Shown: in pieces, positions 6,266 to 64,000 of the stretch
Numbering within the stretch: the stretch's first letter is position 1
Layout: the number at the start of each line of letters is the position of its first letter
IMG/VR virus record: IMGVR_UViG_3300032243_000867
Span: 201,896 to 265,895 of that record
Length of the DNA: 64,000 nucleotides
Origin: a virus
Lineage: Duplodnaviria; Caudoviricetes
Direction: 5' to 3' (one strand)
Notes under the pieces: generated by a model
What the model was told of the DNA's origin: nothing
The model's database searches: none
Seen by the model: only the letters and a program-made list of their open reading frames with translations
Program-made: the position numbers and the translations under genes

Positions 6266-6284
6266 CTTATACCTCTCGGAGGGT

Positions 6285-37157: not shown

Positions 37158-37387
37158 GCCCCGCCCCCGTTCTTCATTCTCTCCCTCTGCTCCAAGGCGG
37201 CTTCCAGCTTGGACCGGCTCTCCGCGAGTTCCGTCTGAAGTAGTTCTCGGAGCTTCATCAGAAGTTCTCGGTTCTTCTGAATCGTCGGAAGCTCGTTGAT
37301 GTCTACGGGTTGGGTCTCCACCCATCGGGCATCTTCGGGCTTCAGCCCAAGAGCCTCTAGCCTCTTGAGCATTTCGGGGTCGATCAC
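37154..37387 (-). CDS. Small coiled-coil protein
   Basis: 77-aa ORF with GTGA and ATGA overlaps on both sides. Confidence 0.65.
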   Translation of the reverse strand: MIDPEMLKRLEALGLKPEDARWVETQPVDINELPTIQKNRELLMKLRELLQTELAESRSKLEAALEQRERMKNGGGA

Positions 37388-40300: not shown

Positions 40301-43300
40301 CCCGTTTCGGCCCCCACACCGAAGGTGCCCGTGGTGAAGGGCGCATAGTTACGCTGGAGGAACGTGAAAGGGACGCCCCCGTTGACGTTCGCAGCGCGGT
40401 TGACCGTGTTGTAGATGTCGGCGGTGCCTACGGGGACGGTCGTTTCGTAGGTGGACAGGGCGCGCACCACTTCGAGGCGGCACTCGACGGACTCCGCCGC
40501 CGGGTTCACCGCCCCGCGCTCGCGGGCGCTGCGGGTGTCCACGGGGCCGGATACGGTCAGCCGGTCACCCTCGATAACGTAGGCGGCGGACTTCACCGCT
40601 ACGAGGTCGATGGTGAAGTCCAGCGGGTCAAGATCGGTCACGCCTCCGTAGGCGGCGAAGTCGAACACCGGGACGGCGGTTTCGACGGTGAGCTTCGTGG
40701 TGTTGAAGAAGCACGGGCCTACGCTTGGAACGAACGACCCGCCGTTGTCGCCCGATACGTCGAACACGCACGCCGTGATAACGGGGTTCGGGGCGTTCAA
40801 TCGCATGATGAACGTCGCGGCGGGAGCGAACGTGCCCGAAGCCTTCATCACGTTGATGCGAATTTCCGAAGGCTGGTCGGACGAGGTGAAGAAGGTGTTG
40901 AACCCGCCCGTGGGGGGGACGGCCCCGCCGCCGCCGTTGTTGTCGTCGAACACGAGGTTCGGCACGCCGATGAGCTCGAACGTCGTGCGGTAGTTCGGCC
41001 CGAAGGGGGCCTGCTTCACCCGGATGCCCGTGGTATGGGGAGCGGGAAAGGGCGGGTCGGCTTCGATGAACGTCTGGATCGCCGTGACGTTCAGGTCGAT
41101 CAGGCTGTTCTTGTCGGTGCGAGAGATGAACCGTGGGGGTTCGATGACCTTCGCCCCGTAGTCCACCGCCCCCACGGTGAGGATGCCCTGCGACCCGTTG
41201 GGGAGACCGCCCGTGCCTTGTTGGACGAACACGAGGTCGTAGGGGTTCACCGTGCCCACGCCCGAGTGCGCGGCGAACGGGGGGTCAAGGGTGACCGAAG
41301 CCCGAAGGGCGGCGGGTGCGGTAGGGAGGCTGTTGACCGCCCCGGCGTTGTCGAGGATCTCGTCCGGGTACGCGGCTTCCAGCGCGTACGGCGGGTACCC
41401 CGGGGCGGGCGGGTTCGCGGGCGGCGTCACCGTATCTACGGTGTAGAAGTCCACGCCCGCCGTGAAGGCGTCCCCAAGAACGGCGAGCTCCGTGGGGGCG
41501 ATCTGGTAGTAGGGCAGGGAGTAATCCCCCGAGTCGAGACGGGATGCACCCCGTAGGGCCGGGATGTTTGACGGGCTCACGTCTCCGTTCTGGAACGTCA
41601 CCCGAGCTTGAAGGTTGCGAAGCGGGGCGGGGGGCTTCTGGCCGAAGATTTCCTTCAGCCCGAAGAGGTTGGGGTCGCTGAACGACGGCAGGGTGATGTC
41701 TACTAGCTCGCCCGAGCGCCCGTCCAACCCCACGTCCGTTCCCGTGCGGTAGGCGGGAAGGGACTGCGAGAAGGCCGCGAGTTCGGCGTTCGTCGGCGGG
41801 TCGGACACGGCGGGGAGCACCGCGCCCGTGGTAGGAACCACGAACAGGGTGTCCCCCTTCTCGACCAGCGCAGCGGTGAGGGGCACGCCGTTCGCCGGGG
41901 CCGTGAGGCGCACGAGATTGCCCACGTTCGCCGCGGTGATCAGGACCGTTGCCCCCGCCGCGTCGTAGGTCTTCAGCGTGACGTAGCACCCTTGGAGGAC
42001 CGTATCGACGAACACCCCCGCATACACGGGTTGCCCGCCCACGGTGATTGTCGTGCCCGCGTAGCCCAGCCCGTAAACCGCCCCGTCGGGGGTTCCCAGT
42101 GATAGTTGGTCGCCGGGGGCGAAGGGCGGCGTGTGAAGGCTGGGGTCGCCCGTAGACAGGTCGTACAGGCCCGAGGTGCCCGTGCCGTTGGAGTACAGCA
42201 GGGCCGTGTCGGGCGTGCCGTTGGACTTCAGCGGGAACTGATCGAGGGGGAGCACCGTCGCCGCGAAGGCGGGTCGAATGACCGGGGGGACGGCGCTGAG
42301 GTAGCCCGAGGGCGAGAACGAGAAGATGCGGGCGCGGGCGAGACGATCTTGCACCGTGGCCCCGAGCACCGACGTGAGGTTGCCCCGCACGGGGTTGCTC
42401 AACCGCGCGATGGCTTTCCCGTTGGTGGACTGAAGGTCGATGACGGGCGGCGACGCGAACAGGTCTAGAAGCAGCTTCCCGTAGCTGTACACCCCGTTGT
42501 TGCCCGTGGTCGGGTCGTACCCGATGCCGGGGTCGGTGGTAGTAAACGCTTCCGTGCGTTCGGGGTACAGCCGCGAGAAGGCCGAAGGCTGGGACAGCCC
42601 CCGGTACACGCCGTAGGAGGACACCTTGAAGTGGATGAGCCCCGTGAGGGATACCGTGGTGCCGGTGAGGCCGTTGAGCACAACGTCGTCAACGTCGTTC
42701 TTGATGGCGCGGTATTGGGCGTTTTGAAGCGTTCCGAGGGCGTTCGCGGAGAGGGCCAGACCCTCGACCGCCCCGCCCGTGAGCGTCGCGCTGTACGGGT
42801 TGACGATGGGGTCGGTGGCGAGAAGCGCGACGGGCACCGTGCGGTAGCCGTTCCAGACTTCGTTCCACACGTTGCGGGCGTTGACCGCCCCAGTGATGCC
42901 GTCCTCGTATCCCGGCGGCGTCCACGGGTCGCCCACCCCCATCCACATACGGAGCTTGCCGTCGCGGTCACCCACGGGGTTGCCCGCGATGTTCTCCAAC
43001 ACCTGCTCGAACGAGGTGATCACCCCGTTGAAGTAGCGGAGGAACGTACGGGTCACCCGGTCACGGGACACGAGGTCTTGCCGCTCGGATGTCAGCCCCG
43101 CCGTGCCTTGCGTGGACGGGGAGTTCTTGGGGAATCCCCCCACCGAGGGGTTCGTGCCCGAGGCGTTGCGGGTGACCCCCTGCACGATGCTCCGCGCCGT
43201 CTCCGTGATGTACGCGGGGAGAGGTAGCGACCGTGCATAGAAGCTATCGGGCGAATCGAACGTGTAGGTGGCGGTGAGGGTCGCACCCAGCCTCCCGTTG

Positions 43301-46300
43301 CTATCGCTGGGCGGGTCGATGTAGCCCGCCGATGCGCTCACCCGTGGGTACTGCACTTTGCCCTGAAACACGAACGGGGCGAGAGTGCCTTGCACGGTGC
43401 GGTAGAACTGCAACGAGGACAGGGCCGGGAGGCCCCGCGTGCGCGGTTCCAGCAGGGTGAGCGTGCCCGCCGAAGGGTCCAGTTGGTAGTCTCGCCCTTC
43501 CGTAAGCGTCGCGCCGGGGACGGTGCCTTCGTACAGGACCACCTCGTAGGGCTCGGTGCCAACGAACGCGCCCGCGCCGATGAACACCGTTGCGCCTTCC
43601 GAGTACACCGGGCGCACGGAGATGCGGACGTAGTTCGGGCTCATTCCCGAGGTCCAGGTCATCTGGATGGGGGACGGCGACCCGAGGGTGATGTCGGTGA
43701 ACGCCCCGTCTACGAACTCTCCCTTGGCGATGAGGAAGGGCACCCCGAAGAGTTCGAGGACGTGACCCGTCACCGCGTACCGGGTGAGATCCCCCTCGAA
43801 GCGCACGACGTTCTGGCCCTTGGTGAGGGGCTGGAAGGCCGGGACGCTAGCCAACCCGTAGGCCGCGGTGAGCAGGGGCAGGAACCCCGCGTCGGCACCC
43901 GTCGCGACGGGCGACCCCACGGGGTCCACCGTGGGTGTGATGGCCCGGTCGGTGAGGAGGTTGATGGGCGGTTCGCTAGGGGAGAGCGTGCCCACGCTCT
44001 TCGTCGGCGTCGGGTACACCGTGACGGTGGTGATGTCCGCGGGAAGGCCGCTGTAGACGGACGCCTTGATGTAGGTGAGGTAGTTGCTGATACGAAGAAT
44101 GCGCCCCGGCACCATGTCCGCAGTGCGGTCGCCGTCGAGATTGAACGTCGAGACGTTGGCTTCAAGGCGGAACGGCGGACGCCACACGGGGCCTTGAGAC
44201 ACCGTGTAGGAGGTTTCGCCGCCCGAGGCTTCGTACACCCCGTAGGTGATCAGCACCTTCGTCGCGGGGTCGTTGACGGCTTTCACCAATGAGATGGTGT
44301 TGTTCGACGGGGTGACCGTGCAGCCCTTGGGGAACCCGTACGTCACCAACGTCGCCCCCACGTACACCGAGGGCTCTACGTCTGTGTCGATGGTGCGCCC
44401 CACCGCGTTGAACGAGTAAAGCTGCGAGCTGACGCGCGCCGCGGCTTCGCGACGGACGATCACGGGCAGGAACTCCGTCACCTGCACGGGTTTCCCGTCA
44501 CTGTCTAGGTACAGCGCGCCCGAGTCGGGCACGGCGCGGTAGTAGGTGACCTCGACCAGTTGCCCGGTCTGTACCGGGCGCTCGAAGGAGAACGCCCCGA
44601 GGATCGGGTTCAAGAACACCGTCTCGAAGGTCTGGAGGTCAACGAGGTAGATGCGGTCGGTTCTGAGGGACAGCCCCGCAACGCTCACCGCACCCGTAAA
44701 CGGGCTGATCTCAGCTTCACCCGCCGGGACGTTCGCAGACGGCAGTACCTCTTCGCGGTACGTCACCGTGGCCGATTGATAGTTGGCCTTCACCGTCGCG
44801 CCGAAGCGGAGCTCCCCGTCCGTCGTGCGGTACTGCACTACGTTCGCGGGGATGGGGGCGAGGAAGTTCGGCACGGGCAAGAGGTCCACGCCGTGGGCGA
44901 ACACCTTGGTGCCCACGACAACGCTGAACGACCCGGTGGTGAAACGATCCCCCGCCGCGGGAACGTTCAGCGCCCCGTCTGCGACGGACCCGAGAACGGA
45001 ACTGGTGAGAATGGTCGCCGGGAAGTTCGCGCCTGTGAGCCCGTACCGCACGGCGAGGGAGCGACCCGAGTTCGCCGTGGGGAGGTCAACGGGCGACGGG
45101 GCGGCGGGGGCCGTGCCCAGAAGGGTCAGCAACCGCACTTCGTACGGTTCGCTGGAGAGGTGGTTGAAGTCCCGGTAGACGGCATCGCCCAGCACGGCGG
45201 GGTTGATCGTTCCCGGCGCGACCCCGTCATAGAGCTCCCACGCGACGTTGCCCGTGCTGGCGGCGATGAAGTCCGGGGTGACGGTGATGGTGGGGGCGGT
45301 AGAAGCCGTGACCGTGTACGAGCCCGCGTTCGCGCCCGAGGTCACCTTCAAGCGGTCGCCCGCGCTGGCCGTGATGGTGAGGGACGTATCGGTGAGAGTG
45401 TTGGGAAGGGTGATCGCCCCACGGTAGCCCGATTGCTTCAGTTCACCGATGCGGGTGACCAGCACCGCCTCGCCCGAGCCCGAAGGCACCAAGAAGTCCG
45501 TCCCGAGGGTGAGCGTCTGCGCCGCCCCGCCCGTCGCGGACACCTTGAGGTATCCCCCCATCGCCGGGTAGAAAGTGGACGGAACCACCCCCGCGTTGCC
45601 GAGGTTGATGGATGAGACGGGCGATAGAACCTGCCCCGCGAACGAGAAGGTGGACAGCCATCCGAAGCGTGACTGGTCGAACTGGTAAACGGCGTCCTTC
45701 CAAGGTTTGACGGTGGTGCTGAGACGCAGCGTGTTCGGGGATGCAACGCCCGACAGGGAGAAGAACTCCCCCACGTCGTAGCCCGCGATGTCCTCGCGCG
45801 GCGGGTAGCTCAGGAGCTGGTACGGGATGGTTTGAAGGTCTTCCGATAGGGCCGCGTCCGTCACCCGATAGGTAGCCCGCACGTCGGGGGCGCTTTGCGA
45901 CCCGTCGAGATTGTTCGGGCTGCGGGACAGCCCGAAGGCGAGGCCCGTATCGGGGAGCCAGTTCGGGTCCGTGGCGGTGTGCGTTCCCGCGCTGGGGTTG
46001 GAGACGCGCCACCCGGGCGGGTACCCCATCGCGCGGCACCCGTCCTCGTTGAAGCCCACGGCCACGGTGCCCGTGGGGTTGTTCGATGCGATGTACAGGT
46101 AGCCCGAGAGAACGCCCGCCGTGCCCGCCCCAGCCATGATGGCATTGAGGGCGACGGCCACCGTCGCGGCGGGTACGTTCGTTCCCGCCGCGGGTGAGTA
46201 GTTGAAAGCGGTGCCGTCCACCGAGAAGGTGAACGTCTCGGTGCCCGCGAAGGTGAACGTGTCGCGGGTGCGCGAAAACACCCTTGCACCGTCGGGGTAC

Positions 46301-48066
46301 GAGGCCGGGGTGAGGAGGGCCTGGACGAAGTACAGGGTTTTGCCGCTGATGGCTTGAGCAAGGGCGTAGCCCACCCGTACGATCCCCGTGTTGAGGGCGA
46401 CGTAAGCCGTGTCGAGCGGGAGGGAGAAGATGTCCGTGGGAAGGTCGGCGTCGTAGTTGACTGTGACGATCTTGGCGATGCGCCCCGCACGGGTAAACAG
46501 GTAGGCGTCACCGAAGCCGGGGGAAAGCCTCTCCACCAGCCCCGACGACAAGGGTCGGGGTTGTACGGGCAACGTGGGGTTGGGGGCGTTGCCTGTACCG
46601 TCGGGCACCCGGACGATTCCCGAGATGCCCGTGCCGGGGAGCCCCGCGGCGGCGGGGATCACATAGTCCGATCCCCAAGAGGTGAGGGTGACGGGGGCCT
46701 GTACGGGCTGCGGGTAGAGGTTGAGGGCTACGCCGTCGTACCGAAGGCTCGCGTCGAGGTACAGCGGGTCGAAGGCGGGGGCGGCGGGGTTGGCCTTCGC
46801 CACGTCCGTTGGGTCCAGCTTCACCCGCCCCGTGGAAAGTGACACGCCCGCTTCGCCCGGATTGACGGCGAGGCCCGCGAGGGCGGTTTCGTTGGCGACG
46901 GTGATGACGGTGAGGGGTGCGCGATTGCCGATGCGAAGAATCGGTCGGTCCGTCGGGCCGGGGACGGGAGAGATGTAGTGCGGACCGCCCAGCAAGGGGC
47001 CGACCACGCCGTCGTTCATGGCCGCGAAGTCGCGGGGTGAGTACCAGAGGGCCTCGCCCTCGTGCGCGGCGATGAACGCCGGGTTCCACGCGATCTCTCC
47101 CGAGTCGCTACCGATCACGCCCGCGAGGGCCGGGGACACGGAGCCGAAGTCATAGCTGGCGTTCGCCACGTCGTCGGCTACCACCAGCACGCCGCTGTAC
47201 GAAACCCCCGTCACCACGGGGTAAGAAGCCTCGTCGGGCGAGTTTCCGAGGCGCAGCATCGCGTACTGCCCTGTGGTGGCCGTGCCCGGAAGGTAGCTGC
47301 CGAGGGGTGCGGTGGGGACGGGCGACAGGGTGTACCGGGAGCCTGCCGAGGACAGGAGCTTGCCGAGGTTCTTGGTTGCCCCGCCCTTGAAGGGCTCCCA
47401 TTTGCGGTGCGCGGCGTTCCAGCCGAAGCGGGCCGCACCGGGATCATTCCGCGTCCAGTTGAACGTCGCGGGGCCTACCGTGTAGGTGACTGAGGTGAAG
47501 GTGTCACCGCGCGAGGCGCTCACGGCGACGGGCGCAGAAGCCGGGACGTTTACCGCCGCGCGCACGGTGGCGGTGTCGTTCAGTTTGACCGTGCCCGACA
47601 CCGGGTCGAGGGTGAAGTCTGGAGACGTAAACGTGACCTTGGTGGAGGTCCCGCCCCGCACATAGACCATGCTGGCGACCGAGGCGACGTTCGCTCCACC
47701 GTCGTCGGTGACTACCACCCGCTGCGTGCCGTCCGTGAGAACGCCCGACGTGGGCACGGTCGGGTCGTTGACCGTGAGCGTGCCCGTGGGGATTGCCACC
47801 GTGCCGTCCGTGGACGTTGTGCCGGGGGCGACGGTCAGCGGTCCCGAGGTGTTCGCCCACAGCAGGTACTCAACGGTCTGCCCGCTTTCACTCAGCGTCG
47901 CGCGGTACCGCGCGCCGTTGATGTCCGTGACCGTGGCCGTGGGGTACGCAGGGGTGGGGGAGGTGAACACCGCACGGGACACGCCCGAGGAGACCTCGCC
48001 CGTCGTGTCCGCGTTGCTGGTCGAGGCCCGAGCGCCCGGAAGTACCTGACCGTCGAAGTTGCCCAT
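37384..48066 (-). CDS. Giant tail/baseplate structural protein (3560 aa)
   Basis: Uninterrupted 10.7-kb ORF rich in Gly/Thr/Ala/Val/Pro beta-type sequence; no enzyme motif recognised. Confidence 0.75.
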   Translation of the reverse strand: MGNFDGQVLPGARASTSNADTTGEVSSGVSRAVFTSPTPAYPTATVTDINGARYRATLSESGQTVEYLLWANTSGPLTVAPGTTSTDGTVAIPTGTLTVNDPTVPTSGVLTDGTQRVVVTDDGGANVASVASMVYVRGGTSTKVTFTSPDFTLDPVSGTVKLNDTATVRAAVNVPASAPVAVSASRGDTFTSVTYTVGPATFNWTRNDPGAARFGWNAAHRKWEPFKGGATKNLGKLLSSAGSRYTLSPVPTAPLGSYLPGTATTGQYAMLRLGNSPDEASYPVVTGVSYSGVLVVADDVANASYDFGSVSPALAGVIGSDSGEIAWNPAFIAAHEGEALWYSPRDFAAMNDGVVGPLLGGPHYISPVPGPTDRPILRIGNRAPLTVITVANETALAGLAVNPGEAGVSLSTGRVKLDPTDVAKANPAAPAFDPLYLDASLRYDGVALNLYPQPVQAPVTLTSWGSDYVIPAAAGLPGTGISGIVRVPDGTGNAPNPTLPVQPRPLSSGLVERLSPGFGDAYLFTRAGRIAKIVTVNYDADLPTDIFSLPLDTAYVALNTGIVRVGYALAQAISGKTLYFVQALLTPASYPDGARVFSRTRDTFTFAGTETFTFSVDGTAFNYSPAAGTNVPAATVAVALNAIMAGAGTAGVLSGYLYIASNNPTGTVAVGFNEDGCRAMGYPPGWRVSNPSAGTHTATDPNWLPDTGLAFGLSRSPNNLDGSQSAPDVRATYRVTDAALSEDLQTIPYQLLSYPPREDIAGYDVGEFFSLSGVASPNTLRLSTTVKPWKDAVYQFDQSRFGWLSTFSFAGQVLSPVSSINLGNAGVVPSTFYPAMGGYLKVSATGGAAQTLTLGTDFLVPSGSGEAVLVTRIGELKQSGYRGAITLPNTLTDTSLTITASAGDRLKVTSGANAGSYTVTASTAPTITVTPDFIAASTGNVAWELYDGVAPGTINPAVLGDAVYRDFNHLSSEPYEVRLLTLLGTAPAAPSPVDLPTANSGRSLAVRYGLTGANFPATILTSSVLGSVADGALNVPAAGDRFTTGSFSVVVGTKVFAHGVDLLPVPNFLAPIPANVVQYRTTDGELRFGATVKANYQSATVTYREEVLPSANVPAGEAEISPFTGAVSVAGLSLRTDRIYLVDLQTFETVFLNPILGAFSFERPVQTGQLVEVTYYRAVPDSGALYLDSDGKPVQVTEFLPVIVRREAAARVSSQLYSFNAVGRTIDTDVEPSVYVGATLVTYGFPKGCTVTPSNNTISLVKAVNDPATKVLITYGVYEASGGETSYTVSQGPVWRPPFRLEANVSTFNLDGDRTADMVPGRILRISNYLTYIKASVYSGLPADITTVTVYPTPTKSVGTLSPSEPPINLLTDRAITPTVDPVGSPVATGADAGFLPLLTAAYGLASVPAFQPLTKGQNVVRFEGDLTRYAVTGHVLELFGVPFLIAKGEFVDGAFTDITLGSPSPIQMTWTSGMSPNYVRISVRPVYSEGATVFIGAGAFVGTEPYEVVLYEGTVPGATLTEGRDYQLDPSAGTLTLLEPRTRGLPALSSLQFYRTVQGTLAPFVFQGKVQYPRVSASAGYIDPPSDSNGRLGATLTATYTFDSPDSFYARSLPLPAYITETARSIVQGVTRNASGTNPSVGGFPKNSPSTQGTAGLTSERQDLVSRDRVTRTFLRYFNGVITSFEQVLENIAGNPVGDRDGKLRMWMGVGDPWTPPGYEDGITGAVNARNVWNEVWNGYRTVPVALLATDPIVNPYSATLTGGAVEGLALSANALGTLQNAQYRAIKNDVDDVVLNGLTGTTVSLTGLIHFKVSSYGVYRGLSQPSAFSRLYPERTEAFTTTDPGIGYDPTTGNNGVYSYGKLLLDLFASPPVIDLQSTNGKAIARLSNPVRGNLTSVLGATVQDRLARARIFSFSPSGYLSAVPPVIRPAFAATVLPLDQFPLKSNGTPDTALLYSNGTGTSGLYDLSTGDPSLHTPPFAPGDQLSLGTPDGAVYGLGYAGTTITVGGQPVYAGVFVDTVLQGCYVTLKTYDAAGATVLITAANVGNLVRLTAPANGVPLTAALVEKGDTLFVVPTTGAVLPAVSDPPTNAELAAFSQSLPAYRTGTDVGLDGRSGELVDITLPSFSDPNLFGLKEIFGQKPPAPLRNLQARVTFQNGDVSPSNIPALRGASRLDSGDYSLPYYQIAPTELAVLGDAFTAGVDFYTVDTVTPPANPPAPGYPPYALEAAYPDEILDNAGAVNSLPTAPAALRASVTLDPPFAAHSGVGTVNPYDLVFVQQGTGGLPNGSQGILTVGAVDYGAKVIEPPRFISRTDKNSLIDLNVTAIQTFIEADPPFPAPHTTGIRVKQAPFGPNYRTTFELIGVPNLVFDDNNGGGGAVPPTGGFNTFFTSSDQPSEIRINVMKASGTFAPAATFIMRLNAPNPVITACVFDVSGDNGGSFVPSVGPCFFNTTKLTVETAVPVFDFAAYGGVTDLDPLDFTIDLVAVKSAAYVIEGDRLTVSGPVDTRSARERGAVNPAAESVECRLEVVRALSTYETTVPVGTADIYNTVNRAANVNGGVPFTFLQRNYAPFTTGTFGVGAETGTGVFALKTMPFEGHGNIAIPGTNITFSAAPSSRQNTTNAILTADVYTDRIDGTPVAHTFSWGDNRFIPSATLTGATASVLPGDIVTLRSNSEDPAYTKAAQNGKVGTHLVRGVIASGGGLERRDVTYTVPDGAGDYSSGWLPVAFPTVVTATATNLIVSEIPSLPPSKNWAGTATAQTHTFPPAGRVFVIVNEAGLNSPVPATFASSIVSADYTGFNPVTMDFTGLNNYQDGQGLAISGAAFATAAQAGLKVSGFTMIPLNPHGDGIPENLPGYCNGGDGASPNSAYGLRTLQATRGANTLNWTASTLGFLSYVPPATSKVDVYEKIKLTSETFLPLSAPVYDEIPGVMDITSIYTAGTDWDRLHTPTGVYPPPFAIDGARCFLPGDAWTVDYSGAAGIYVEPSFPRTGNTLADPIYRNVVDAGNTSTTSRVGVRRLTTYMTSVPVAGNSYLEVGQIEVRRPRRFHDLGNSFAEALLSLRYSYEIRRGIVSTVTASGGYGVLTADAVDGAVPPVATVGGTATQLGDFTSKLVNVNPGDEVRFINASGVIAARAEVVKVTGARTLTLSRKVTVAPGARFEVYLKVPPVPHEQSNEELLGYATDRVLINRPANLVAQTGGRAPATNKIGDTDTTVNYTAAGVAEGDIVVIDPAGTLTTPAGSTTPPQYGRRPYGDNAVTGRANYAAGSPARADDNRGYYRVVSRTATQLTVEAIGGLAGNNGGDVTFGSGTNAYTVYPTVHASGLTGGTEGQMDLRETAPPVGNSYTTTFKSVEPFAYRVIRPTSLLSSKTVELILSMRERMLSWMEEIRAVRFKYGTYFLFQRDQHITDLGLTTDPESGLGLLTNPYLLGLIGNWTVSPFSNVRDCLSILDRRFWCLDYRLDTVGPRYAALPVTPYADLSNGVGRPVLVDRVNEALDGRDKLRATRYAWLDLRVNRVTGSLESIRRFDIERPKREAEAERALLTVQSVEKLP

Positions 48067-49960: not shown

Positions 49961-50347
49961 TCACATTTCTGTAGGCCCATGCAGGAACCACGGGGTGAGG
50001 GCCGGGACGTACTCGACCTTGGGGTGTGGGGGCTCCGAGCCCGTGCGCTTCTTGACTTTGGCGAGCACGTCTTCAAGGGACCGCCCGACGTGGACGAAAT
50101 CGTCCAAGGGCCACACGAGGTGGTCGCCGTAGTGCCAAGCGGTGCCCGCGCGCACGGGGACCATCACCTTCTTCGCCCCCGGTTGGCACTCCGCGAGGTT
50201 CCACGGAGACACCTGTCCCATGCGCTTTCCCCCGCCGGGTTCGGCCCATGCGGGGCAGTAGGGGCACGTCCAGAAATCTGTGTTCTTGTAGAGCTTTTCA
50301 CAGGGAGTGCCACACAACGGGCACGTCCAGAAATGATCGCAGTTCAT
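49961..50347 (-). CDS. Zinc-finger protein
   Basis: Duplicated FWTCPxC motifs. Confidence 0.6.
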   Translation of the reverse strand: MNCDHFWTCPLCGTPCEKLYKNTDFWTCPYCPAWAEPGGGKRMGQVSPWNLAECQPGAKKVMVPVRAGTAWHYGDHLVWPLDDFVHVGRSLEDVLAKVKKRTGSEPPHPKVEYVPALTPWFLHGPTEM

Positions 50348-50562
50348 AGGCCAACTTTCGACGGGTCACGGGGTTCCCTTCCCCGAAGGGCGCACCGAAA
50401 CCCGGCATCGTCGAGACGGCACGCAGGCCCGTACGTGTCGCGAGACGCGGCGCGCACCCTCGACGGTACGTTGCTGTACCAACCGCCGCCGCGTTGGACG
50501 CGAAGGCGGGTGTCGGTCGGGTTTGTTTCGTAGGGAGCGGGGGTCTTTCGTGATCTTGCCAT
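50344..50562 (-). CDS. Stand-alone DGR-type variable-region mini-protein C15
   Basis: MARSRKTPAPYETNPTDTRLRVQRGGGWYSNVPSRVRAASRDTYGPACRLDDAGFRCALRGREPRDPSKVGL; GGGCGTAA 7 nt upstream. Confidence 0.8.
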   Translation of the reverse strand: MARSRKTPAPYETNPTDTRLRVQRGGGWYSNVPSRVRAASRDTYGPACRLDDAGFRCALRGREPRDPSKVGL

Positions 50563-51944: not shown

Positions 51945-52138
51945 GCACGCACCGCGTGACCTTTGCAGGGCTCGTTTGCCGCCGCTTGCCCCGGTTCTGT
52001 TGACAGGTAGTACAGGGTGTAGTGAGCCCCGCACTTCTCACAGCAGATACGGGTCGGGAGGCTGGACCCGCCGTGGAGCTCCAGCCCCGGCTTCACCCTC
52101 CAGACGTGCGCCCCGTCGTCGATTTTGGACTCACTCAC
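51941..52138 (-). CDS. Small hypothetical protein sharing its first codons with cassette C13
   Basis: VSESKIDDG...CCEKCG; GTGA overlap with C14. Confidence 0.55.
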   Translation of the reverse strand: MSESKIDDGAHVWRVKPGLELHGGSSLPTRICCEKCGAHYTLYYLSTEPGQAAANEPCKGHAVRA

Positions 52139-52326
52139 GGTTTTACTTTCCTCTCACATCCCACACGCGCGCACCGAAACCCCAGGTTGTCGAACCGGTA
52201 CGTCGGACCGTCCCCGCGACGGTCCGCGACGCGCACCCTCGACGGATAGCTGACGCCCCAGCTACCGCCGTGGCTGAGGCGGTGAAGGGTGTCGGAGGTG
52301 GGTTGCTTGGTGGTGGGGGGGTTCAT
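52135..52326 (-). CDS. DGR-type variable-region mini-protein C14
   Basis: MNPPTTKQPTSDTLHRLSHGGSWGVSYPSRVRVADRRGDGPTYRFDNLGFRCARVGCERKVKP. Confidence 0.8.
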   Translation of the reverse strand: MNPPTTKQPTSDTLHRLSHGGSWGVSYPSRVRVADRRGDGPTYRFDNLGFRCARVGCERKVKP

Positions 52327-52334
52327 ACGGGTAC

Positions 52335-52342
52335 TTACGCCC
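52335..52342 (-). promoter_or_regulatory. GGGCGTAA motif
   Basis: 8 nt upstream of the C14 ATG; its TAA is the C13 stop. Confidence 0.5.
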
Positions 52343-52505
52343 GGGGTTCCCTTCCCCGCAGCGCGCACCGAAAACCGAGGCTGCTGTCCCGGAGCGTCGG
52401 CCCGATCCTGTTACGGAACGCGACGCGCACCCTCGACGGATCGCGGTCGTCCCAGCCACCGCCGCGGAAGACGCGGAGGCGGGTGTCGGTCTTGGACTCA
52501 CTCAC
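52335..52505 (-). CDS. DGR-type variable-region mini-protein C13
   Basis: VSESKTDTRLRVFRGGGWDDRDPSRVRVAFRNRIGPTLRDSSLGFRCALRGREPRA; GTGA overlap. Confidence 0.8.
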   Translation of the reverse strand: MSESKTDTRLRVFRGGGWDDRDPSRVRVAFRNRIGPTLRDSSLGFRCALRGREPRA

Positions 52506-52957: not shown

Positions 52958-53119
52958 TCATCGCGGCATCTTTCCCGGTAGGTGCGTGCGAAAGCCCAGC
53001 GCACTGTTACATCCCGAGGGCACGCGCGAATGGCGAGCAGACGCGAGCACCCACGACGGATCGTCGTAGAGCCAAGGGCTACTGCGGAAGACGCGAAAGG
53101 CTTTGACCGACGGCTTCAC
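52958..53119 (-). CDS. DGR-type variable-region mini-protein C12 (GFRTHL subfamily; not in the ORF track)
   Basis: Manual translation VKPSVKAFRVFRSSPWLYDDPSWVLASARHSRVPSGCNSALGFRTHLPGKMPR; GTGA overlap. Confidence 0.72.
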   Translation of the reverse strand: MKPSVKAFRVFRSSPWLYDDPSWVLASARHSRVPSGCNSALGFRTHLPGKMPR

Positions 53120-56260: not shown

Positions 56261-56998
56261 ATGACACCCACCGCGTACATACAAGCGGGCACCGTGAAAG
56301 GCTACCTCTCAGAGTCGTGCGCCCTCGCGGCAGCAGACCTCACCCTCCGAGGCTACCGGGTGATCCCCTTCGCCCGTAACAAACTCCCCCCCACCGTCAC
56401 CCCCGACACCCCCGTGAAAGGAGACACGGGAGCCGTGAAGGCCATCTACGAATGGACCTTCAAGACCCCCTACCCCAACGTGGACATCCCCACGGCCCTC
56501 AAACCCCTCGCCCACCGTAGGGTGTGGAAAACCACGCTGGGCGTACTGCGGGCACGGGAACGAGCACACCCCCATAGCACAGAGAAAATCTTCGTGAAGC
56601 CCCTCAACGAAGCCAAGGCGTTCCACGCGAGGGGTTTCCGGTACGCCGCCAACGGCCTCTGCCTGTTCCCAGACGACTACCCGATCCTCGCCCAAGAGTA
56701 CCTGCACTTCAGCCGCGAGGAACGGTTCTTCATCGGACCCCGGGGCGTCCGTAAAGACCCCACCCAGCACCGAGAACTCCGTGCCTACGCCGAGAAAGCG
56801 TACCGGGCGTGGAAAGCCGAAGCCCCCGGAGCCTACGTCCTCGACGTGGGATGGTGCGGCAAAGGACACCCCGCCGTCGTCGAAGTCAACAGCGTGCTCA
56901 CCGCAGGACGCTTCGACATGGTCACCAACCCCGGTGCCCTGCTCATCGCAGCGTGGAAGAGCTACGCCCACTACGCAGAACACGGAACCTTCCGGTAA
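56261..56998 (+). CDS. ATP-grasp domain protein (R2K/DUF4343-like)
   Basis: IPTALKPLAHRRVWKTTL, IFVKP, AQEYLHFSREERFFI, AYVLDVG...VVEVN. Confidence 0.75.
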   Translation: MTPTAYIQAGTVKGYLSESCALAAADLTLRGYRVIPFARNKLPPTVTPDTPVKGDTGAVKAIYEWTFKTPYPNVDIPTALKPLAHRRVWKTTLGVLRARERAHPHSTEKIFVKPLNEAKAFHARGFRYAANGLCLFPDDYPILAQEYLHFSREERFFIGPRGVRKDPTQHRELRAYAEKAYRAWKAEAPGAYVLDVGWCGKGHPAVVEVNSVLTAGRFDMVTNPGALLIAAWKSYAHYAEHGTFR

Positions 56999-59183: not shown

Positions 59184-59447
59184 TTATAGCAGCGGCAGGT
59201 GAAGCCCTACCCACGACCCTAGGGACCCGCCCACCATCAGCCCGATCCATTGGGAGCGCCGCCCGTCTTCGACAAGGCGTTTGATGATTGAGACGTTCAG
59301 CGCCGTACTCAGTACGTCCGTGATCAGCGCGAAGCGGAAGTGTCCTACTGCGGTGGAGCGGACATTCAAGTACCACAGCAGGTGGTAGACGAATTGGGCG
59401 ACCGCGACCGCTAGCGGGGAGGACATAGCCTTGTCCGTGGGGTTCAC
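59184..59447 (-). CDS. Small membrane protein sharing its start with cassette C11
   Basis: VNPTDKAMSS... with hydrophobic helices; GTGA overlap with C11. Confidence 0.6.
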   Translation of the reverse strand: MNPTDKAMSSPLAVAVAQFVYHLLWYLNVRSTAVGHFRFALITDVLSTALNVSIIKRLVEDGRRSQWIGLMVGGSLGSWVGLHLPLL

Positions 59448-59617
59448 GTTCGGGGTTCCCTACCCCGAAGGACGCACCGAAACCCGAGGTTGTTGTCCTG
59501 GTACGCAGGCTCGTCCGCGTTGCGAATGGCCGCGCGCACCCTCGACGGTCCATAGTTGTGCCAACAGCCGCCGCCGCGGAAGACGCGGTCGGAGGTGGTG
59601 GTGTCCGTGGGGTTCAC
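59444..59617 (-). CDS. DGR-type VR mini-protein C11
   Basis: VNPTDTTTSDRVFRGGGCWHNYGPSRVRAAIRNADEPAYQDNNLGFRCVLRGREPRT. Confidence 0.82.
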   Translation of the reverse strand: MNPTDTTTSDRVFRGGGCWHNYGPSRVRAAIRNADEPAYQDNNLGFRCVLRGREPRT

Positions 59618-59784
59618 GTTCGGGGTTCCCTTCCCCGCAGCGCGCACCGAAACCCGATGTTGTTGATACGGTCCGCAGGCACGTACGTGAAGCGAGACGC
59701 GGCGCGCACCCACGACGGTACGTAGTTGCCCCAACTGCCGCCGCGGTAGACGCGGGTGTCGGAGGGCTTGGTAGGAGGGTTCAT
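59614..59784 (-). CDS. DGR-type VR mini-protein C10
   Basis: MNPPTKPSDTRVYRGGSWGNYVPSWVRAASRFTYVPADRINNIGFRCALRGREPRT. Confidence 0.85.
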   Translation of the reverse strand: MNPPTKPSDTRVYRGGSWGNYVPSWVRAASRFTYVPADRINNIGFRCALRGREPRT

Positions 59785-59933
59785 ACTCGGGGTTGCCTTA
59801 CTGACAGGTGGGTTCGGAACCCGACGTATTTGTCTCGGGTCTCGGAAGAAATATCCGAGACCTCGTCCGCCGCGCGCACGTAGAGGGGGCGCTCGATGAC
59901 CCAACTTCCTCCGCGTACCATGCGGCGTTTCAT
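59781..59933 (-). CDS. DGR-type VR mini-protein C9 (GFRTHL subfamily; not in the ORF track)
   Basis: Manual translation MKRRMVRGGSWVIERPLYVRAADEVSDISSETRDKYVGFRTHLSVRQPRV. Confidence 0.78.
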   Translation of the reverse strand: MKRRMVRGGSWVIERPLYVRAADEVSDISSETRDKYVGFRTHLSVRQPRV

Positions 59934-60076
59934 CGCGGGCACCGGCACCGGGCTCGGAGGCGGAAGCCCACGGTGGTGTTGCGGTAGACAGGTTCCTTTC
60001 GCACGCGCGCGGGGACGGCGCGGGGGTCGTTGCCGAAGCTGTAGCTCCGCAGGGTGAGAGTCCCCGGTGGGTTCAT
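59930..60076 (-). CDS. Diverged VR mini-protein C8
   Basis: MNPPGTLTLRSYSFGNDPRAVPARVRKEPVYRNTTVGFRLRARCRCPR. Confidence 0.65.
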   Translation of the reverse strand: MNPPGTLTLRSYSFGNDPRAVPARVRKEPVYRNTTVGFRLRARCRCPR

Positions 60077-60225
60077 CGCGGTGCCCTCATCGTCAGGTGC
60101 GTACGGAATCCCAGTAGGCGTCCATATCGCTCCGGTCCGTAGATGTGGGCCACGGTGCTGGTCCCCAGCCATTTCGGGTCATCGCTACGAAGGCATCCCC
60201 CACGGGTGACGTTCTGGTTGTTCAC
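60073..60225 (-). CDS. VR mini-protein C7 (GFRTHL subfamily)
   Basis: VNNQNVTRGGCLRSDDPKWLGTSTVAHIYGPERYGRLLGFRTHLTMRAPR. Confidence 0.72.
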   Translation of the reverse strand: MNNQNVTRGGCLRSDDPKWLGTSTVAHIYGPERYGRLLGFRTHLTMRAPR

Positions 60226-60455
60226 GGGTCGCTCCGATTGGTGTCGGTCCAGTGTTCGAGGTCGGTGGTGTCGAGGATGTCCGTGCAAACGTCAGCGGGC
60301 GGGGTCACCTCTCGGTGTTCCCCGCCCGCCGTGATCGTGTCCGCCCACGCGAAGGACGCTCCCGCGTCCGGGTCGTAGCCGTGCCCTACCCGGACGGTGA
60401 CCACTTCGGGGTTCGCCCGGAGGTAGTCCCGTGCCCAGTCACTCGCCCGCGTCAT
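60222..60455 (-). CDS. Hypothetical protein (77 aa)
   Basis: MTRASDWARDYLRANPEVV...; coupled to C7 by GTGA. Confidence 0.6.
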   Translation of the reverse strand: MTRASDWARDYLRANPEVVTVRVGHGYDPDAGASFAWADTITAGGEHREVTPPADVCTDILDTTDLEHWTDTNRSDP

Positions 60456-60723
60456 GGGAAGGGTTACGCTGCTTGAGGTAGGCGCGGAGGATGTTCGCGG
60501 CGCTATTCGCCGCGTCATCGCAGTAGCCCACGAACTCCTGCGCGTCTTCGCCGTTCTCCACCACGCCGTCGAGGGCGGCGAGGGCCTGACCCGCAATTTT
60601 GCGGGCGGCGAGGGCGTGGAACCCCGTGCTCGCCGGGTCACTTCGGTGAAGCGAATCGAGGAGGACCGAGCACTGGAGGCTGAAGCTGACGGTGTTGACC
60701 GCGTACTGGATCTCGTTGTTCAT
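60439..60723 (-). CDS. Hypothetical helical protein
   Basis: 94-aa ORF with GAAGGG RBS. Confidence 0.65.
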   Translation of the reverse strand: MNNEIQYAVNTVSFSLQCSVLLDSLHRSDPASTGFHALAARKIAGQALAALDGVVENGEDAQEFVGYCDDAANSAANILRAYLKQRNPSHDAGE

Positions 60724-60753
60724 GGTGTGTCCCTTCGTGTGTGTGCGTTGCGT

Positions 60754-60972
60754 TCAGACGGTGCGGGTGTACCAGTTGCCGCCCTTGAGGACGACGCGGC
60801 GCGGTTGCCAGCCTTTGCTGGTCTGCACTTCGAGGCGCGAACCCGTGGGGGCGAACTGCACGGTGCGGGCGAAGCGGGCGGGCACCCGCCGCGCCCCCTT
60901 GTGGGAGCCCGTGTGGATTTCGCACTGGGCGAGGTGGGTGCCATCGGGGGAGATGAGCTTCAACGTGTTCAT
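60754..60972 (-). CDS. Hypothetical basic protein
   Basis: 72-aa ORF with AGGA RBS. Confidence 0.6.
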   Translation of the reverse strand: MNTLKLISPDGTHLAQCEIHTGSHKGARRVPARFARTVQFAPTGSRLEVQTSKGWQPRRVVLKGGNWYTRTV

Positions 60973-60984
60973 GGTGTGTGTTTC

Positions 60985-61167
60985 CTAGTGTGTGCGGGGT
61001 TGCCTCGCCCGAAGGGCGCACCGAAACCCCAGGTTGTCGTCACGGCACGCAGGCACGTCCGCGCCGCGAGACGCGGCGCGCACCCTCGACGGTACGTTGC
61101 TGTACCAACAGCCTTCGCGTTGGACGCGAAGGCGGGTGTCGGAGGTGGGTTTGGTGGTGGGCTTCAC
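60985..61167 (-). CDS. DGR-type VR mini-protein C6
   Basis: VKPTTKPTSDTRLRVQREGCWYSNVPSRVRAASRGADVPACRDDNLGFRCALRARQPRTH. Confidence 0.85.
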   Translation of the reverse strand: MKPTTKPTSDTRLRVQREGCWYSNVPSRVRAASRGADVPACRDDNLGFRCALRARQPRTH

Positions 61168-61343
61168 GTTCGGGGTTCCCTTCCCCGCAGCGCGCACCGA
61201 AACCCGATGTTGTTGCACCGGTTCGCAGGCACGTACGTGAAGCGAGACGCGGCGCGCACCCACGACGGTCCGTTGAAGTACCCACCGCCGCCGCGGTAGA
61301 CGCGGGGGCGGGTGTCGGAGGTGGGTTTGGTGGTGGGCTTCAC
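61164..61343 (-). CDS. DGR-type VR mini-protein C5
   Basis: VKPTTKPTSDTRPRVYRGGGGYFNGPSWVRAASRFTYVPANRCNNIGFRCALRGREPRT. Confidence 0.85.
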   Translation of the reverse strand: MKPTTKPTSDTRPRVYRGGGGYFNGPSWVRAASRFTYVPANRCNNIGFRCALRGREPRT

Positions 61344-61516
61344 GTTCGGGGTTCCCTTCCCCGCAGCGCGCACCGAAACCCCAGGTCGCCGTACCGGTTC
61401 GCAGGCCCGTTCGTGTTGCGAGACGCCGCGCGCACCCACGACGGAGCATTGTTGTGCCAACTGCCGCCGCGGTCGACGCGGAGGCGGGTGTCGGAGGGCT
61501 TGGTAGGGGGCTTCAC
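61340..61516 (-). CDS. DGR-type VR mini-protein C4
   Basis: VKPPTKPSDTRLRVDRGGSWHNNAPSWVRAASRNTNGPANRYGDLGFRCALRGREPRT. Confidence 0.85.
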   Translation of the reverse strand: MKPPTKPSDTRLRVDRGGSWHNNAPSWVRAASRNTNGPANRYGDLGFRCALRGREPRT

Positions 61517-61686
61517 GTTCGGGGTTCCCTTCCCCGCAGCGCGCACCGAAACCCCAGGTCGCCGTACCGGTTCGCAGGCCCGTTCGTGTTGCGAGACGCC
61601 GCGCGCACCCACGACGGTGCATAGTTCCAACAGCCGCCGCGGCCGACGCGGAGACGGGTGTCGGAGGGCTTGGTAGGGGGGTTCAT
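61513..61686 (-). CDS. DGR-type VR mini-protein C3
   Basis: MNPPTKPSDTRLRVGRGGCWNYAPSWVRAASRNTNGPANRYGDLGFRCALRGREPRT. Confidence 0.85.
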   Translation of the reverse strand: MNPPTKPSDTRLRVGRGGCWNYAPSWVRAASRNTNGPANRYGDLGFRCALRGREPRT

Positions 61687-61865
61687 ACTCGGGGTTCCCT
61701 TCCCCGCAGCGCGCACCGAAACCCCAGGTGGAGGAGCCGGAGCGCAGGCACGCCCGAGTTGCGAGACGCCGCGCGCACCCACGACGGTGCATAGTTCCAA
61801 CAGCCGCCGCGGACGACGCGGAGACGGGTGTCGGTCTTGGGTTGCTTGGTGGTGGGGGGGTTCAT
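61683..61865 (-). CDS. DGR-type VR mini-protein C2
   Basis: MNPPTTKQPKTDTRLRVVRGGCWNYAPSWVRAASRNSGVPALRLLHLGFRCALRGREPRV. Confidence 0.85.
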   Translation of the reverse strand: MNPPTTKQPKTDTRLRVVRGGCWNYAPSWVRAASRNSGVPALRLLHLGFRCALRGREPRV

Positions 61866-62038
61866 ACTCGGGGTTCCCTTACTGACAGGTGGGTGCGAAA
61901 ACTCATGTCGGTTTCGCGCCACTCGGGCTCGTACGAGCCCCGGTCGGCGGGCCGCATGAACGGGGCGTAGGAGAGTCCCCAACCTCCTCCCACCAGTACG
62001 CGGGGGAGGTTGGGGTCCGGGGGCTGTGCCCGTCTCAT
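61862..62038 (-). CDS. VR mini-protein C1 (FRTHL subfamily), coupled to the FGE scaffold
   Basis: MRRAQPPDPNLPRVLVGGGWGLSYAPFMRPADRGSYEPEWRETDMSFRTHLSVREPRV; its ATG overlaps the scaffold TGA. Confidence 0.78.
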   Translation of the reverse strand: MRRAQPPDPNLPRVLVGGGWGLSYAPFMRPADRGSYEPEWRETDMSFRTHLSVREPRV

Positions 62039-62868
62039 TTGTGGACGGTGCTGGTCCACTCCCAGACGTTGCCGCTCATGTCGAGCAGCCCGTAGGGGGA
62101 GGCACCCTTCGGGCGGGCGGGGGTGCCGTCCGGGTTGACGCACGGGGCCGTGCGTTCCTTCTGGGTGCGGATGGACGACCAGCACAGGTCGTCCGTCGGG
62201 GCCTCGTTGCCCCACGGAAACTTCCGACCGTCCCAACCGCGTGCGGCGTGCTCCCATTCCTCCTCGGTGGGGAGGCCGACACCGGCCCACTTCGCGAACT
62301 CACAGGCGTCCCAGTAGGAGACTTCCACCACCGGGTGGTCGATGAGGTCCACCGTCGCGCCCGACTGGTCCGTGGCGGTCGTGGGCTTCAGGTCTTTCCC
62401 GCACGCCGTGGCGTACCAGTTCCACTGGCGCACGGTGGTGGGGGTCTGCGCCATGAACCCACCGGGGACTCTCACCTTCCGGCGCGTTTGAGACTCGTCG
62501 TCCCCCATCTCGAACGCCGTGGCCGGGGGGACGTAGCACATGGGCAGGGTGTTGCCGTCGGGGAGGACGTGATGCACCACCCACGGGGTTCCGCCCAGCT
62601 CCGCGAGCGTGGGCCAGATCTCGCGGACCTCGCCGTCGTCGTCCTCCAGGCGGGGGACGCACCCGTAGGTGCGGTGGACGCGAAACGTCCAGACCTCCTT
62701 GGAGGTGAGCACCCGCACGCCCGTGATTCCCGCCGGGAGGTTCCCGGCGATTTGGCGGATCACCGACATCACCTCGTCGAGGTGATCGCCGGAGGGCAAT
62801 CGGAAGTCGGGCTCGATGTCGAGCCATTGGCCGAGACATGATTCGATGAAGCACCCTTGGATTTCCAT
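62035..62868 (-). CDS. FGE-sulfatase/C-type-lectin-fold protein lacking its C-terminal variable region
   Basis: FEMG, QTPTTVRQW, HPVVEVSYWDACEFAKWAG, LPTEEEWEHAARG, FPWGN, SPYGLLDMSGNVWEW, then a stop after TSTVHK; GGAGA RBS before ATG 62868. Confidence 0.9.
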   Translation of the reverse strand: MEIQGCFIESCLGQWLDIEPDFRLPSGDHLDEVMSVIRQIAGNLPAGITGVRVLTSKEVWTFRVHRTYGCVPRLEDDDGEVREIWPTLAELGGTPWVVHHVLPDGNTLPMCYVPPATAFEMGDDESQTRRKVRVPGGFMAQTPTTVRQWNWYATACGKDLKPTTATDQSGATVDLIDHPVVEVSYWDACEFAKWAGVGLPTEEEWEHAARGWDGRKFPWGNEAPTDDLCWSSIRTQKERTAPCVNPDGTPARPKGASPYGLLDMSGNVWEWTSTVHK

Positions 62869-63817: not shown

Positions 63818-64000
63818 TCACTCGACGAGCGCAGCCTCGACTACCTCCCACGGCACCGCGCAACGCACGGCGGCGGCGTCGGCGGCGGAGTCGTCGGCGT
63901 AGTAGGCGGCGCGGGCGGCGGCGCGGGCGTAGACGGCGGCGGCGTCGGCGGCGTCGGCGGCGTCGTAGTAGGCGGCGCGGGCGGCGGCGTGGGAGGCGGC
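63818..64000 (-). CDS. Ala-rich low-complexity protein, 5'-partial
   Basis: Manual translation ...AASHAAARAAYYDAADAADAAAVYARAAARAAYYADDSAADAAAVRCAVPWEVVEAALVE-stop. Confidence 0.65.
   Translation of the reverse strand, partial: AASHAAARAAYYDAADAADAAAVYARAAARAAYYADDSAADAAAVRCAVPWEVVEAALVE

Follow-up and report, generated by a model that had tools for sequence, protein, structure and literature searches.

A split lectin-fold gene in a jumbo phage, with short variable-region genes probably diversified by an external diversity-generating retroelement

The targets of diversity-generating retroelements (DGRs) described so far are single polypeptides, with the reverse transcriptase (RT) encoded in the same element. 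In BPP-1 Mtd and in TvpA of Treponema denticola (structure 2y3c) the variable region is found in the C-terminal RGGxW...GFR segment, and for proteins of this type the template is AAC-rich and mismatches fall at adenines. A constant part accompanied by an array of alternative variable ends is known from other systems, i.e., the R64 shufflon, the invertible tail-fibre genes of Mu and P1, and Borrelia vls. Proteins with tandem complete C-type lectin (CLec) domains, as well as cellular DGRs of multicellular bacteria that diversify putative CLec sensors of conflict systems, have been described (PMC10907252; PMC7159879). One DGR may also serve several targets, with seven non-adjacent targets in Treponema and eight tandem targets in Stenotrophomonas, and experiments have shown that a DGR can act in trans from a plasmid; remote targets were not expected with phages (PMC5758913 and work cited therein). 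No FGS domains turned up when jumbo phages were surveyed (PMC7824862). Here we describe a locus in the final 64 kb (64,000 nucleotides, hereafter the window; GC content 64%) of the 265,895-bp IMG/VR record IMGVR_UViG_3300032243_000867 (G000; Caudoviricetes), in which a protein of the formylglycine-generating enzyme (FGE)/CLec fold is split between one scaffold gene and a series of short genes, termed mini-genes or minis, that encode its missing C-terminal end. We consider it likely that this is a split DGR target, the tips of which are diversified by an external DGR, probably that of the host. Positions are those of the window unless stated otherwise.

The scaffold gene (62035–62868, minus strand) encodes 277 aa with an N-terminal beta-rich domain and a match to positions 12–193 of the 255 positions of the Pfam family FGE-sulfatase (E 8e-32). 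It stops six residues past GNVWEW and its C-terminus reads GNVWEWTSTVHK-stop. The part of the family that is absent from the scaffold, about positions 204–254, is matched by the products of the minis, of which eleven (m1–m11, 48–60 aa each) lie 3' of the scaffold as m1–m6, three unrelated genes and m7–m11. An FGE-sulfatase match was obtained for nine of the ten mini products scanned (all but m8, the most degenerate); m1 gives no match alone, but it aligns with the family. The CLec/FGE fold with its C-terminal variable region is therefore complete only across two polypeptides. In the whole record the N-terminal part of the scaffold is present in one copy by Pfam scan, and a hidden Markov model built from the minis finds about 25 of them. 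An initial annotation, made from the sequence, had proposed that the FGE gene ends six residues after GNVWEW, that its C-terminal segment is instead encoded by the minis and that the protein is split in the loop before the variable region. The gene end and the complementary Pfam ranges bear this out, and the place of the split is kept in every relative found.

According to the same annotation a sequencing error at the junction would refute the split. The split is not an assembly artefact: the source run and two other lake runs each provide contigs that cross the junction free of indels (the sequence is present in metagenomes from freshwater and lakes). No differences are seen in the source-run contigs, and the sole change in those of the other runs is A to G at 62038, which preserves both the Lys codon and a start codon. 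A programmed -1 frameshift was rejected because no slippery heptamer is present. A 16-bp hairpin begins about 20 nt past the scaffold stop, and the region has a folding z-score of -3.5. The final ~100 nt of the scaffold together with m1 (61900–62140) are 95–98% identical at the nucleotide level to the related contigs L001 and L002, as opposed to 55–88% for the remaining scaffold. Recombination could explain this peak of identity, as could strong selection or an RNA signal for reinitiation.

The truncated form of the scaffold is conserved. About 45 homologous protein clusters with 44–94% identity have the same truncated length (264–305 aa); all of the approximately 40 relatives with full coverage end just past GNVWEW, and those that were read end 5–9 residues past GNVWEW or its equivalent. 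A relative with a fused gene, which according to the initial annotation would speak against a split, is not found among the ~45 clusters. In L083 (91% nucleotide identity to the window), L001 and L002 (both 74% amino acid identity) and L080 (a 392-kb contig, 66% amino acid identity) the scaffold stop overlaps the start of an m1-like gene, the orthologs doing so via GTGA. The lack of C-terminal fusions is also relevant to the idea that the minis are a silent cassette bank of the vls, pilS or shufflon type, from which single cassettes are recombined onto the scaffold to form a fused gene. A tandem array of alternative C-termini, on the same strand and 3' of a constant gene, would be consistent with such a bank. 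However, each cassette has its own start codon, most also have a Shine-Dalgarno-like motif, and the joints between copies that are seen in repeat contigs resemble cross-joins between paralogs and not scaffold fusions. A cassette bank is thus extremely unlikely.

The split design is not confined to this phage and its close relatives. When a profile of the minis was run against 1.84 billion representative proteins, the top 150 matches included about 20 stand-alone proteins of 54–71 aa; many of the matching proteins consist of 2–11 in-frame units, and some have the scaffold in the same chain (P0241, P0242). In contig L193 (63% GC; 6174–7225) a truncated FGE gene of 162 aa overlaps a four-unit gene by GTGA. 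In L194, an 86-kb phage-like contig of 47% GC, four genes hold 13 units and are followed by a scaffold of 153 aa that ends nine residues past GNVYEW (6468–8965). The unit genes of L193 and L194 have three to four in-frame, variable-region-only units each, and the two contigs are unrelated and phage-like; one multi-unit chain might bind several scaffold molecules. The initial annotation had suggested a search for loci with a truncated scaffold and minis in other phages, and L193, L194, L083 and its relatives are such loci. It also knew of no described DGR with this layout. No published description was found in the literature searched, but the layout is shared by L193 and L194 and hence not unique to the phage. 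Specifically, neither variable-region-only genes nor phage targets of a cellular template are described there. Given that the split layout is seen in unrelated contigs with a GC content of 47% and 63%, it is probably a widespread design that may escape gene callers and DGR finders.

The two polypeptides are predicted to assemble. A joined model, in which scaffold and m1 were connected through a residue X placed at the break, was predicted by AlphaFold2 as one FGE domain, with confidence extending through the m1 part (predicted local distance difference test, pLDDT, 94.8; predicted template modelling score, pTM, 0.92). Its Foldseek matches are FGE, EgtB and the DGR protein TvpA; among the matches listed TvpA (2y3c) has the highest query-normalised template modelling score (0.54), while FGE and EgtB are better by E-value. 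Two-chain prediction, as proposed in the initial annotation, was run for scaffold and m10 as separate chains and gave a complete fold with about 230 contacts and an interface score from aligned errors (ipSAE) of 0.91 in three runs, compared with 0.00 for the best of three controls. In calibration 58 of 80 solved complexes attained this mark, as did 2 of 110 mismatched pairs; these counts apply here only approximately, as our own alignments were supplied for the prediction. With the scaffold present the pLDDT of m10 is 83, as opposed to 28 next to an unrelated chain; for the scaffold the values are 91 in the presence of m10 and about 74 in its absence. Completion of the scaffold in trans by a variable-region peptide, as in the central proposal of the initial annotation, is thus predicted by modelling.

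Judged by its sequence, the product is unlikely to be an enzyme. Catalytic FGE has a cysteine pair in the C-terminal segment (Cys336 and Cys341 in the human enzyme). Inspection of the alignment found no mini with two cysteines at the active-site spacing, which points to a binding module rather than an enzyme.

A role for the minis without the scaffold was also considered, either as decoys or dominant-negative fragments directed against the DGR-diversified FGE sensors of the host or as DNA sinks for its mutagenic cDNA. Such a role would fit the caspase-FGE and TIR-kinase-FGE proteins that are the host-type targets (see below) and are proposed to be immune sensors (PMC10907252; PMC7159879), the relative L082, which has a truncated scaffold and no adjacent mini, and the existence of proteins made of tandem units alone. 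It is on the other hand difficult to reconcile with the stop/start overlap of scaffold and m1 in four relatives, with the scaffold-like genes that adjoin the unit arrays of L193 and L194, and with the disorder predicted for the lone peptide. Furthermore, in a folded sensor the corresponding segment is attached covalently and would not readily give way to a fragment. Scaffold-free action is therefore very unlikely.

The minis fall into two classes. Class I comprises m2–m6, m10, m11 and dispersed copies, and has ends of the GFRCALRGREPR type; class II comprises m1, m7, m8 and m9, and has ends of the GFRTHL type. In 25 class I cores from five phages six codons are of the form NNC, with all four bases at the first position, three or four at the second and always C at the third. 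The framework codons are identical at the nucleotide level even in L003, a relative with a scaffold that is only 51% identical. The NNC pattern with its invariant C predicts an AAC-rich template, and a scan of species genomes with the class I framework, followed by an nhmmer filter, led to L153, a contig of a bacterial metagenome-assembled genome (MAG). Here a 118-nt template repeat (L153:1163–1280) that reads LRVNRGGSWNNNEPSWVRAASRNTNEPANRNNNIGFRCA lies directly after an RT gene. m10 has 11 mismatches to this template in 116 nt, and all are at adenines (11/26 A sites, 0/90 other sites; hypergeometric p about 1e-8). For the remaining class I minis of the arrays the mismatched A sites and other sites are 17/24 and 4/91 (m2), 11/24 and 4/91 (m3), 10/26 and 4/92 (m4), 12/26 and 3/92 (m5), 15/26 and 7/92 (m6), and 11/26 and 8/87 (m11); for the dispersed copy at 50344–50562 they are 15/26 and 6/92. 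When 25 minis from four phages are pooled, 369 of 643 A sites are mismatched against 169 of 2257 others (odds ratio 16.6, p 9e-155), that is 57% of A sites and 5–12% of C, G and T sites. Three related DGR templates fit m10 far less well, with 13–24 non-A mismatches.

Judged by sequence, the class I minis are DGR variable regions of the L153 template or of a near-identical one. Class II minis (m1, m7 and m9 by name) match no template, and m1, m7, m8 and m9 are by the same measure conserved ordinary paralogs. The label of DGR target given in the initial annotation consequently holds for the seven class I minis of the arrays and does not extend to these four. The two classes also behave differently among relatives: m7, m8 and m9 are conserved in L083, with one amino acid change in m7, and the changes between class II orthologs are too few for a ratio of nonsynonymous to synonymous substitution rates. 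The copy number of class I, in contrast, differs between near relatives, with five copies in the first array here and one in L083. The second array has two class I copies here, while that of L083 has seven or eight copies, which are of mixed class and not conserved. The variable positions of the 13 minis of L080 include K, E, M and Q; these minis look like ordinary paralogs, so that the split family must be older than its coupling to a DGR, or broader. Two dispersed minis, at 52135–52326 (63 aa) and 52335–52505 (56 aa), show NNC-type variation on a different framework (CCG ACG; AAC AGG) and have 12–18 non-A mismatches to the L153 template, 12 in the latter case, which points to a second template type. 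In L003 (9629–10717; P0042 and P0043) a class I mini, the ortholog of that at 50344–50562, precedes the scaffold and continues into it in the same frame. The resulting gene calls of 347–354 aa have the variable segment at the N-terminus and are not C-terminal fusions; they may represent a circular permutation or merely a missing stop.

The variable region of a DGR target is expected to have an IMH element and a nearby hairpin at its 3' end. At their 3' ends the host variable regions read GCGCGCGCGGGG, the template GCGCGCGCGAGG and the phage minis GCGCGCTGCGGGG. The phage minis keep the G run of the variable-region type but have one inserted T, and next comes a 5-bp GC hairpin. These flanks are of importance for deciding whether the tips diverged within the phage or were acquired ready-made, i.e., whether host variable regions that were already diversified have been recombined into phage cassettes across the shared framework. 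Phage and host variable regions have about 118 bp of near-identical framework in common and some copies are mosaics, m3 and m4 having the same 3' half and m6, the copy at genome position 41743 and the copy at 50344 sharing parts, all of which recombination would explain. However, all class I copies share the phage-specific flanks (the inserted T and the stop/start module), which implies that they were duplicated inside phage genomes and diverged afterwards. The blocks of homology between variable codons are just 6–27 nt, and there are few such alleles per host genome. Import of alleles is accordingly quite improbable. Mapped contigs, in which variation within a population could not show, gave a lone variant of m11, which is due to cross-mapping of the paralog at genome position 71383.

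The phage has no DGR of its own. The 266-kb record contains no match to PF00078 (RVT_1) or PF05635, no YxDD motif, no tblastn match to the RT of L153 or to the bAvd of L189, a contig related to L153, and no template-like copy; RT, Avd and template are likewise absent from four related phage records. None of 2.9 million viral contigs contains the inferred template pattern, and in IMG/VR the RT nearest to that of L153 is 45% identical. A scan of metagenomes for the pattern returned 13 ordinary DGR templates, all with other frameworks, and among 301 genomes of the order of the MAG the exact template was found in that MAG only. L153, a contig of 2470 bp, belongs to a freshwater Myxococcota MAG that carries the label uncultured delta proteobacterium and comprises 1849 contigs. 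Its RT has 355 aa with YMDD and GxxxSQ motifs and adjoins the template repeat, and a conventional unsplit FGE target is encoded on the other strand. L153, L189 and L191 are the contigs in which RT and bAvd accompany the template; in L189 bAvd is upstream of an RT that is 98% identical to that of L153. A second target in the same MAG, in L129, is a caspase-FGE protein. RT relatives of 64–73% identity are present on contigs of 140–606 kb from Polyangiales, Polyangiaceae and Sandaracinaceae, with bAvd and TIR-kinase-FGE targets. The GC content of L153 is 71% (73% for the RT gene) compared with 64.1 +/- 2.9% for the phage, about three standard deviations above the phage mean. From its sequence context the L153-type DGR looks bacterial. 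Bacterial templates diverge together with their RTs, and that scaffolds only 51% identical have frameworks identical to one template argues for a template external to the phages. As template, RT and bAvd are absent from the phage but present in a Myxococcota genome, a DGR supplied by the host is most likely.

The same split target could instead be served by RT, bAvd and template that do not belong to the host but to a part of the phage missed in sampling, to a satellite or to a co-infecting element, of which L153 would be a mis-binned fragment. L153 is indeed short and from a fragmented bin, the CheckV completeness estimate of the phage record is 59%, and the phage contig ends in a triplet-repeat tract. 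In addition another contig from the same scan, L167 (RGPS01000530.1, 1349 bp), which carries minis and is binned as a Terriglobia MAG, is 88.7% identical to positions 70394–71045 of the phage record and is a mis-binned phage fragment. Against this, the machinery is missing from the phage records and from IMG/VR as described, the GC content sets L153 apart from the phage, L153 and L129 carry conventional unsplit targets of the caspase-FGE type, and the runs listed for the RT do not include the one from which the phage comes. Nor does the record seem to be incomplete. In the related contig G003 a match to positions 419–841 of the phage record is located about 800 bp from a match to positions 264966–265175, so that the record ends abut and little or nothing of the genome is missing. 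The record probably represents a complete, circularly permuted genome, and the CheckV estimate is probably too low; the assembly broke in the tract of GC-rich triplet, 12-mer and 66-mer repeats at its end (63868–64000). The related record G002 was rejected as a source of missing sequence because it is collinear with positions 1.5–175 kb and adds nothing. We consider a DGR on a non-host element unlikely, and diversification by a host DGR remains the preferred reading.

The start codon of every mini overlaps a stop as ATGA or GTGA, m1 overlapping the stop of the scaffold itself; the initial annotation had reported the overlap for the first mini, and its counts of eleven minis downstream and 15 in the window are also correct, four being dispersed copies. 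A purine-rich Shine-Dalgarno-like motif is present 10–15 nt before most minis and thus falls within the final codons of the gene in front. With a tandem period of 176 nt (3n+2), consecutive mini-genes switch frame. Neither promoter-like nor terminator-like sites were found on the minus strand from 63500 to 59100.

All genes of the operon are on the minus strand. m1 (61862–62038, 58 aa) has the core LPRVLVGGGW...SFRTHL, its ATG overlaps the TGA of the scaffold and it is likely to be the cognate C-terminal piece. It is followed by the class I minis m2 (61683–61865, 60 aa, Pfam positions 204–254), m3 (61513–61686, 57 aa), m4 (61340–61516, 58 aa), m5 (61164–61343, 59 aa), where the Trp of RGGxW is lost (GGGGY), and m6 (60985–61167, 60 aa), which ends the first array and has a degraded 3' end (RARQPRTH) and the motif REGCW. 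Three unrelated small genes of 72, 94 and 77 aa (60222–60972), conserved in L083, separate the two arrays. The second array consists of the class II minis m7 (60073–60225, 50 aa, GFRTHL type), m8 (59930–60076, 48 aa), which is degenerate with RSYSFGN in place of RGGSW, and m9 (59781–59933, 50 aa), and of the class I minis m10 (59614–59784, 56 aa), the cleanest DGR variable region, and m11 (59444–59617, 57 aa). The operon ends with a gene for an 87-aa hydrophobic protein (59184–59447) that starts with GTGA and has an ortholog in L083. m11 and this gene have their first ~30 nt in common (59602–59631 and 59432–59461), both with GTGA and VNPTD, so that the 5' end of the cassette is duplicated at the start of the next gene. 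Apart from the two minis of the second template type, the dispersed copies in the window are a class II mini at 52958–53119 (53 aa) and the class I mini at 50344–50562 (about 72 aa), which starts MARSRKTPAPYETNPTD; all four are on the minus strand.

The location of the scaffold operon varies between related genomes. It is at 264 kb in G000, at the equivalent of about 12–16 kb in G001 and G002, and in G003 among minis equivalent to those at 50–52 kb of the window, i.e., the scaffold-mini module appears to move within these genomes. Megablast of the region against GenBank phages gave no match, and tblastn of the scaffold against GenBank phages found distant FGE domains only. Two other features of the window may be mentioned. 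A single open reading frame of 3560 aa (37384–48066, minus strand) has a strong bias in GC content at third codon positions, and a few kb away from the arrays the plus strand, opposite to theirs, encodes a protein of the R2K clade of ATP-grasp enzymes (56261–56998; Pfam R2K_2, E 2e-13).

Taken together, the following sequence of events is proposed. One operon would provide a constant 277-aa scaffold and then a set of short genes, each giving the last ~50 residues of the FGE/CLec fold, the segment expected to carry the ligand-binding variable region. The minis would be translated by coupling to the preceding gene, via the ATGA or GTGA overlaps and mostly with the aid of the Shine-Dalgarno-like motifs, and each peptide would dock non-covalently on a scaffold molecule and complete the fold. 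If the peptides are interchangeable on the scaffold, one scaffold gene would yield a mixed population of lectins with different tips. Class II would represent conserved paralogs, with m1 as the cognate piece, while class I would be rewritten by adenine-specific mutagenic retrohoming from the template repeat. The DGR would be supplied in trans by the host cell, most likely a member of the Myxococcota, where the same template would serve a caspase-FGE protein. Splitting would make diversity cheap, as each of the ~25 variable regions would cost about 175 bp instead of about 1 kb.

Several points weigh against this proposal. First, the score of the scaffold-m10 complex may reflect recognition of a known single-chain fold that has been cut in two, and what the model expresses is compatibility and not affinity. 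Second, conserved motif residues are lost in m5 and m6, and intact class I reading frames say little about translation, as stops cannot arise when AAC codons are mutated at their adenines; the lone run labelled as RNA is probably DNA. Third, retrohoming onto phage DNA is itself inferred. The 3' element of the phage minis is one inserted T away from that of the host variable regions, and it lacks the motif that is conserved downstream in the host targets. Fourth, with L153 being short and its bin fragmented, and with L167 from the same scan mis-binned, the bacterial origin of the DGR is argued from GC content and RT relatives and not from linkage. No run that holds the phage is among the listed holders of the RT, with one study in common.

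It is tempting to speculate, with somewhat less than even confidence, that a lytic jumbo phage without RT keeps about 25 variable regions tuned to the DGR template of its host, so that the host enzyme could rewrite the tips at each infection. The phage would then own an effector-less, multi-specific copy of the sensor domain, e.g., decoy receptors that mask the phage trigger from the sensor; the initial annotation had suggested intracellular targets such as host defence proteins. If the speculation is right, a virus would exploit a cellular hypermutation system across replicons, the host machine being one that appears to hypermutate caspase- and TIR-type sensors. Rewriting of phage DNA by a host DGR would provide a testable link between hypermutating sensors of bacteria and the viruses they are thought to detect, as well as a sequence-based means of assigning hosts to such phages. 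If the peptides assemble with the scaffold they would constitute a natural fragment-complementation library and possibly a compact display scaffold for engineering.

Relative to the literature searched, what is new here is the split fold with a free-standing tip gene or string of units, the presence of about 25 tips per genome and the match between a virus and a bacterial template. The fold, the position of the variable region in the C-terminal RGGxW...GFR segment and, for class I minis, the AAC-rich template with mismatches at adenines are shared with BPP-1 Mtd and TvpA. In those proteins, however, the variable segment is the end of one polypeptide, whereas in the phage it is a separate gene product; there are about 25 variable segments per scaffold gene, and RT, Avd and template are lacking. 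The system is connected with the cellular DGRs with CLec sensors (PMC10907252; PMC7159879) in that its cognate template and RT are found in a Myxococcota MAG together with a caspase-FGE target, and in that relatives of this RT serve TIR-kinase-FGE proteins and have bAvd. The targets of the cellular systems are large, unsplit, chromosomal sensor-effectors, in contrast to the phage copies, which are split, viral and without an effector domain. As in DGRs with multiple or remote targets, one template corresponds to several variable regions, some of them far from the RT, but the number of targets is here about three times the largest surveyed and the targets are on a different, viral replicon from the RT (PMC5758913). 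Finally, the array of alternative ends is shared with the shufflon, the tail-fibre inversion systems of Mu and P1 and vls. Unlike in the shufflon and vls, neither recombinase sites nor a fused expression form were found in the phage; its cassettes each have their own start and could be expressed at once, and their variation would arise by template-driven point mutagenesis.

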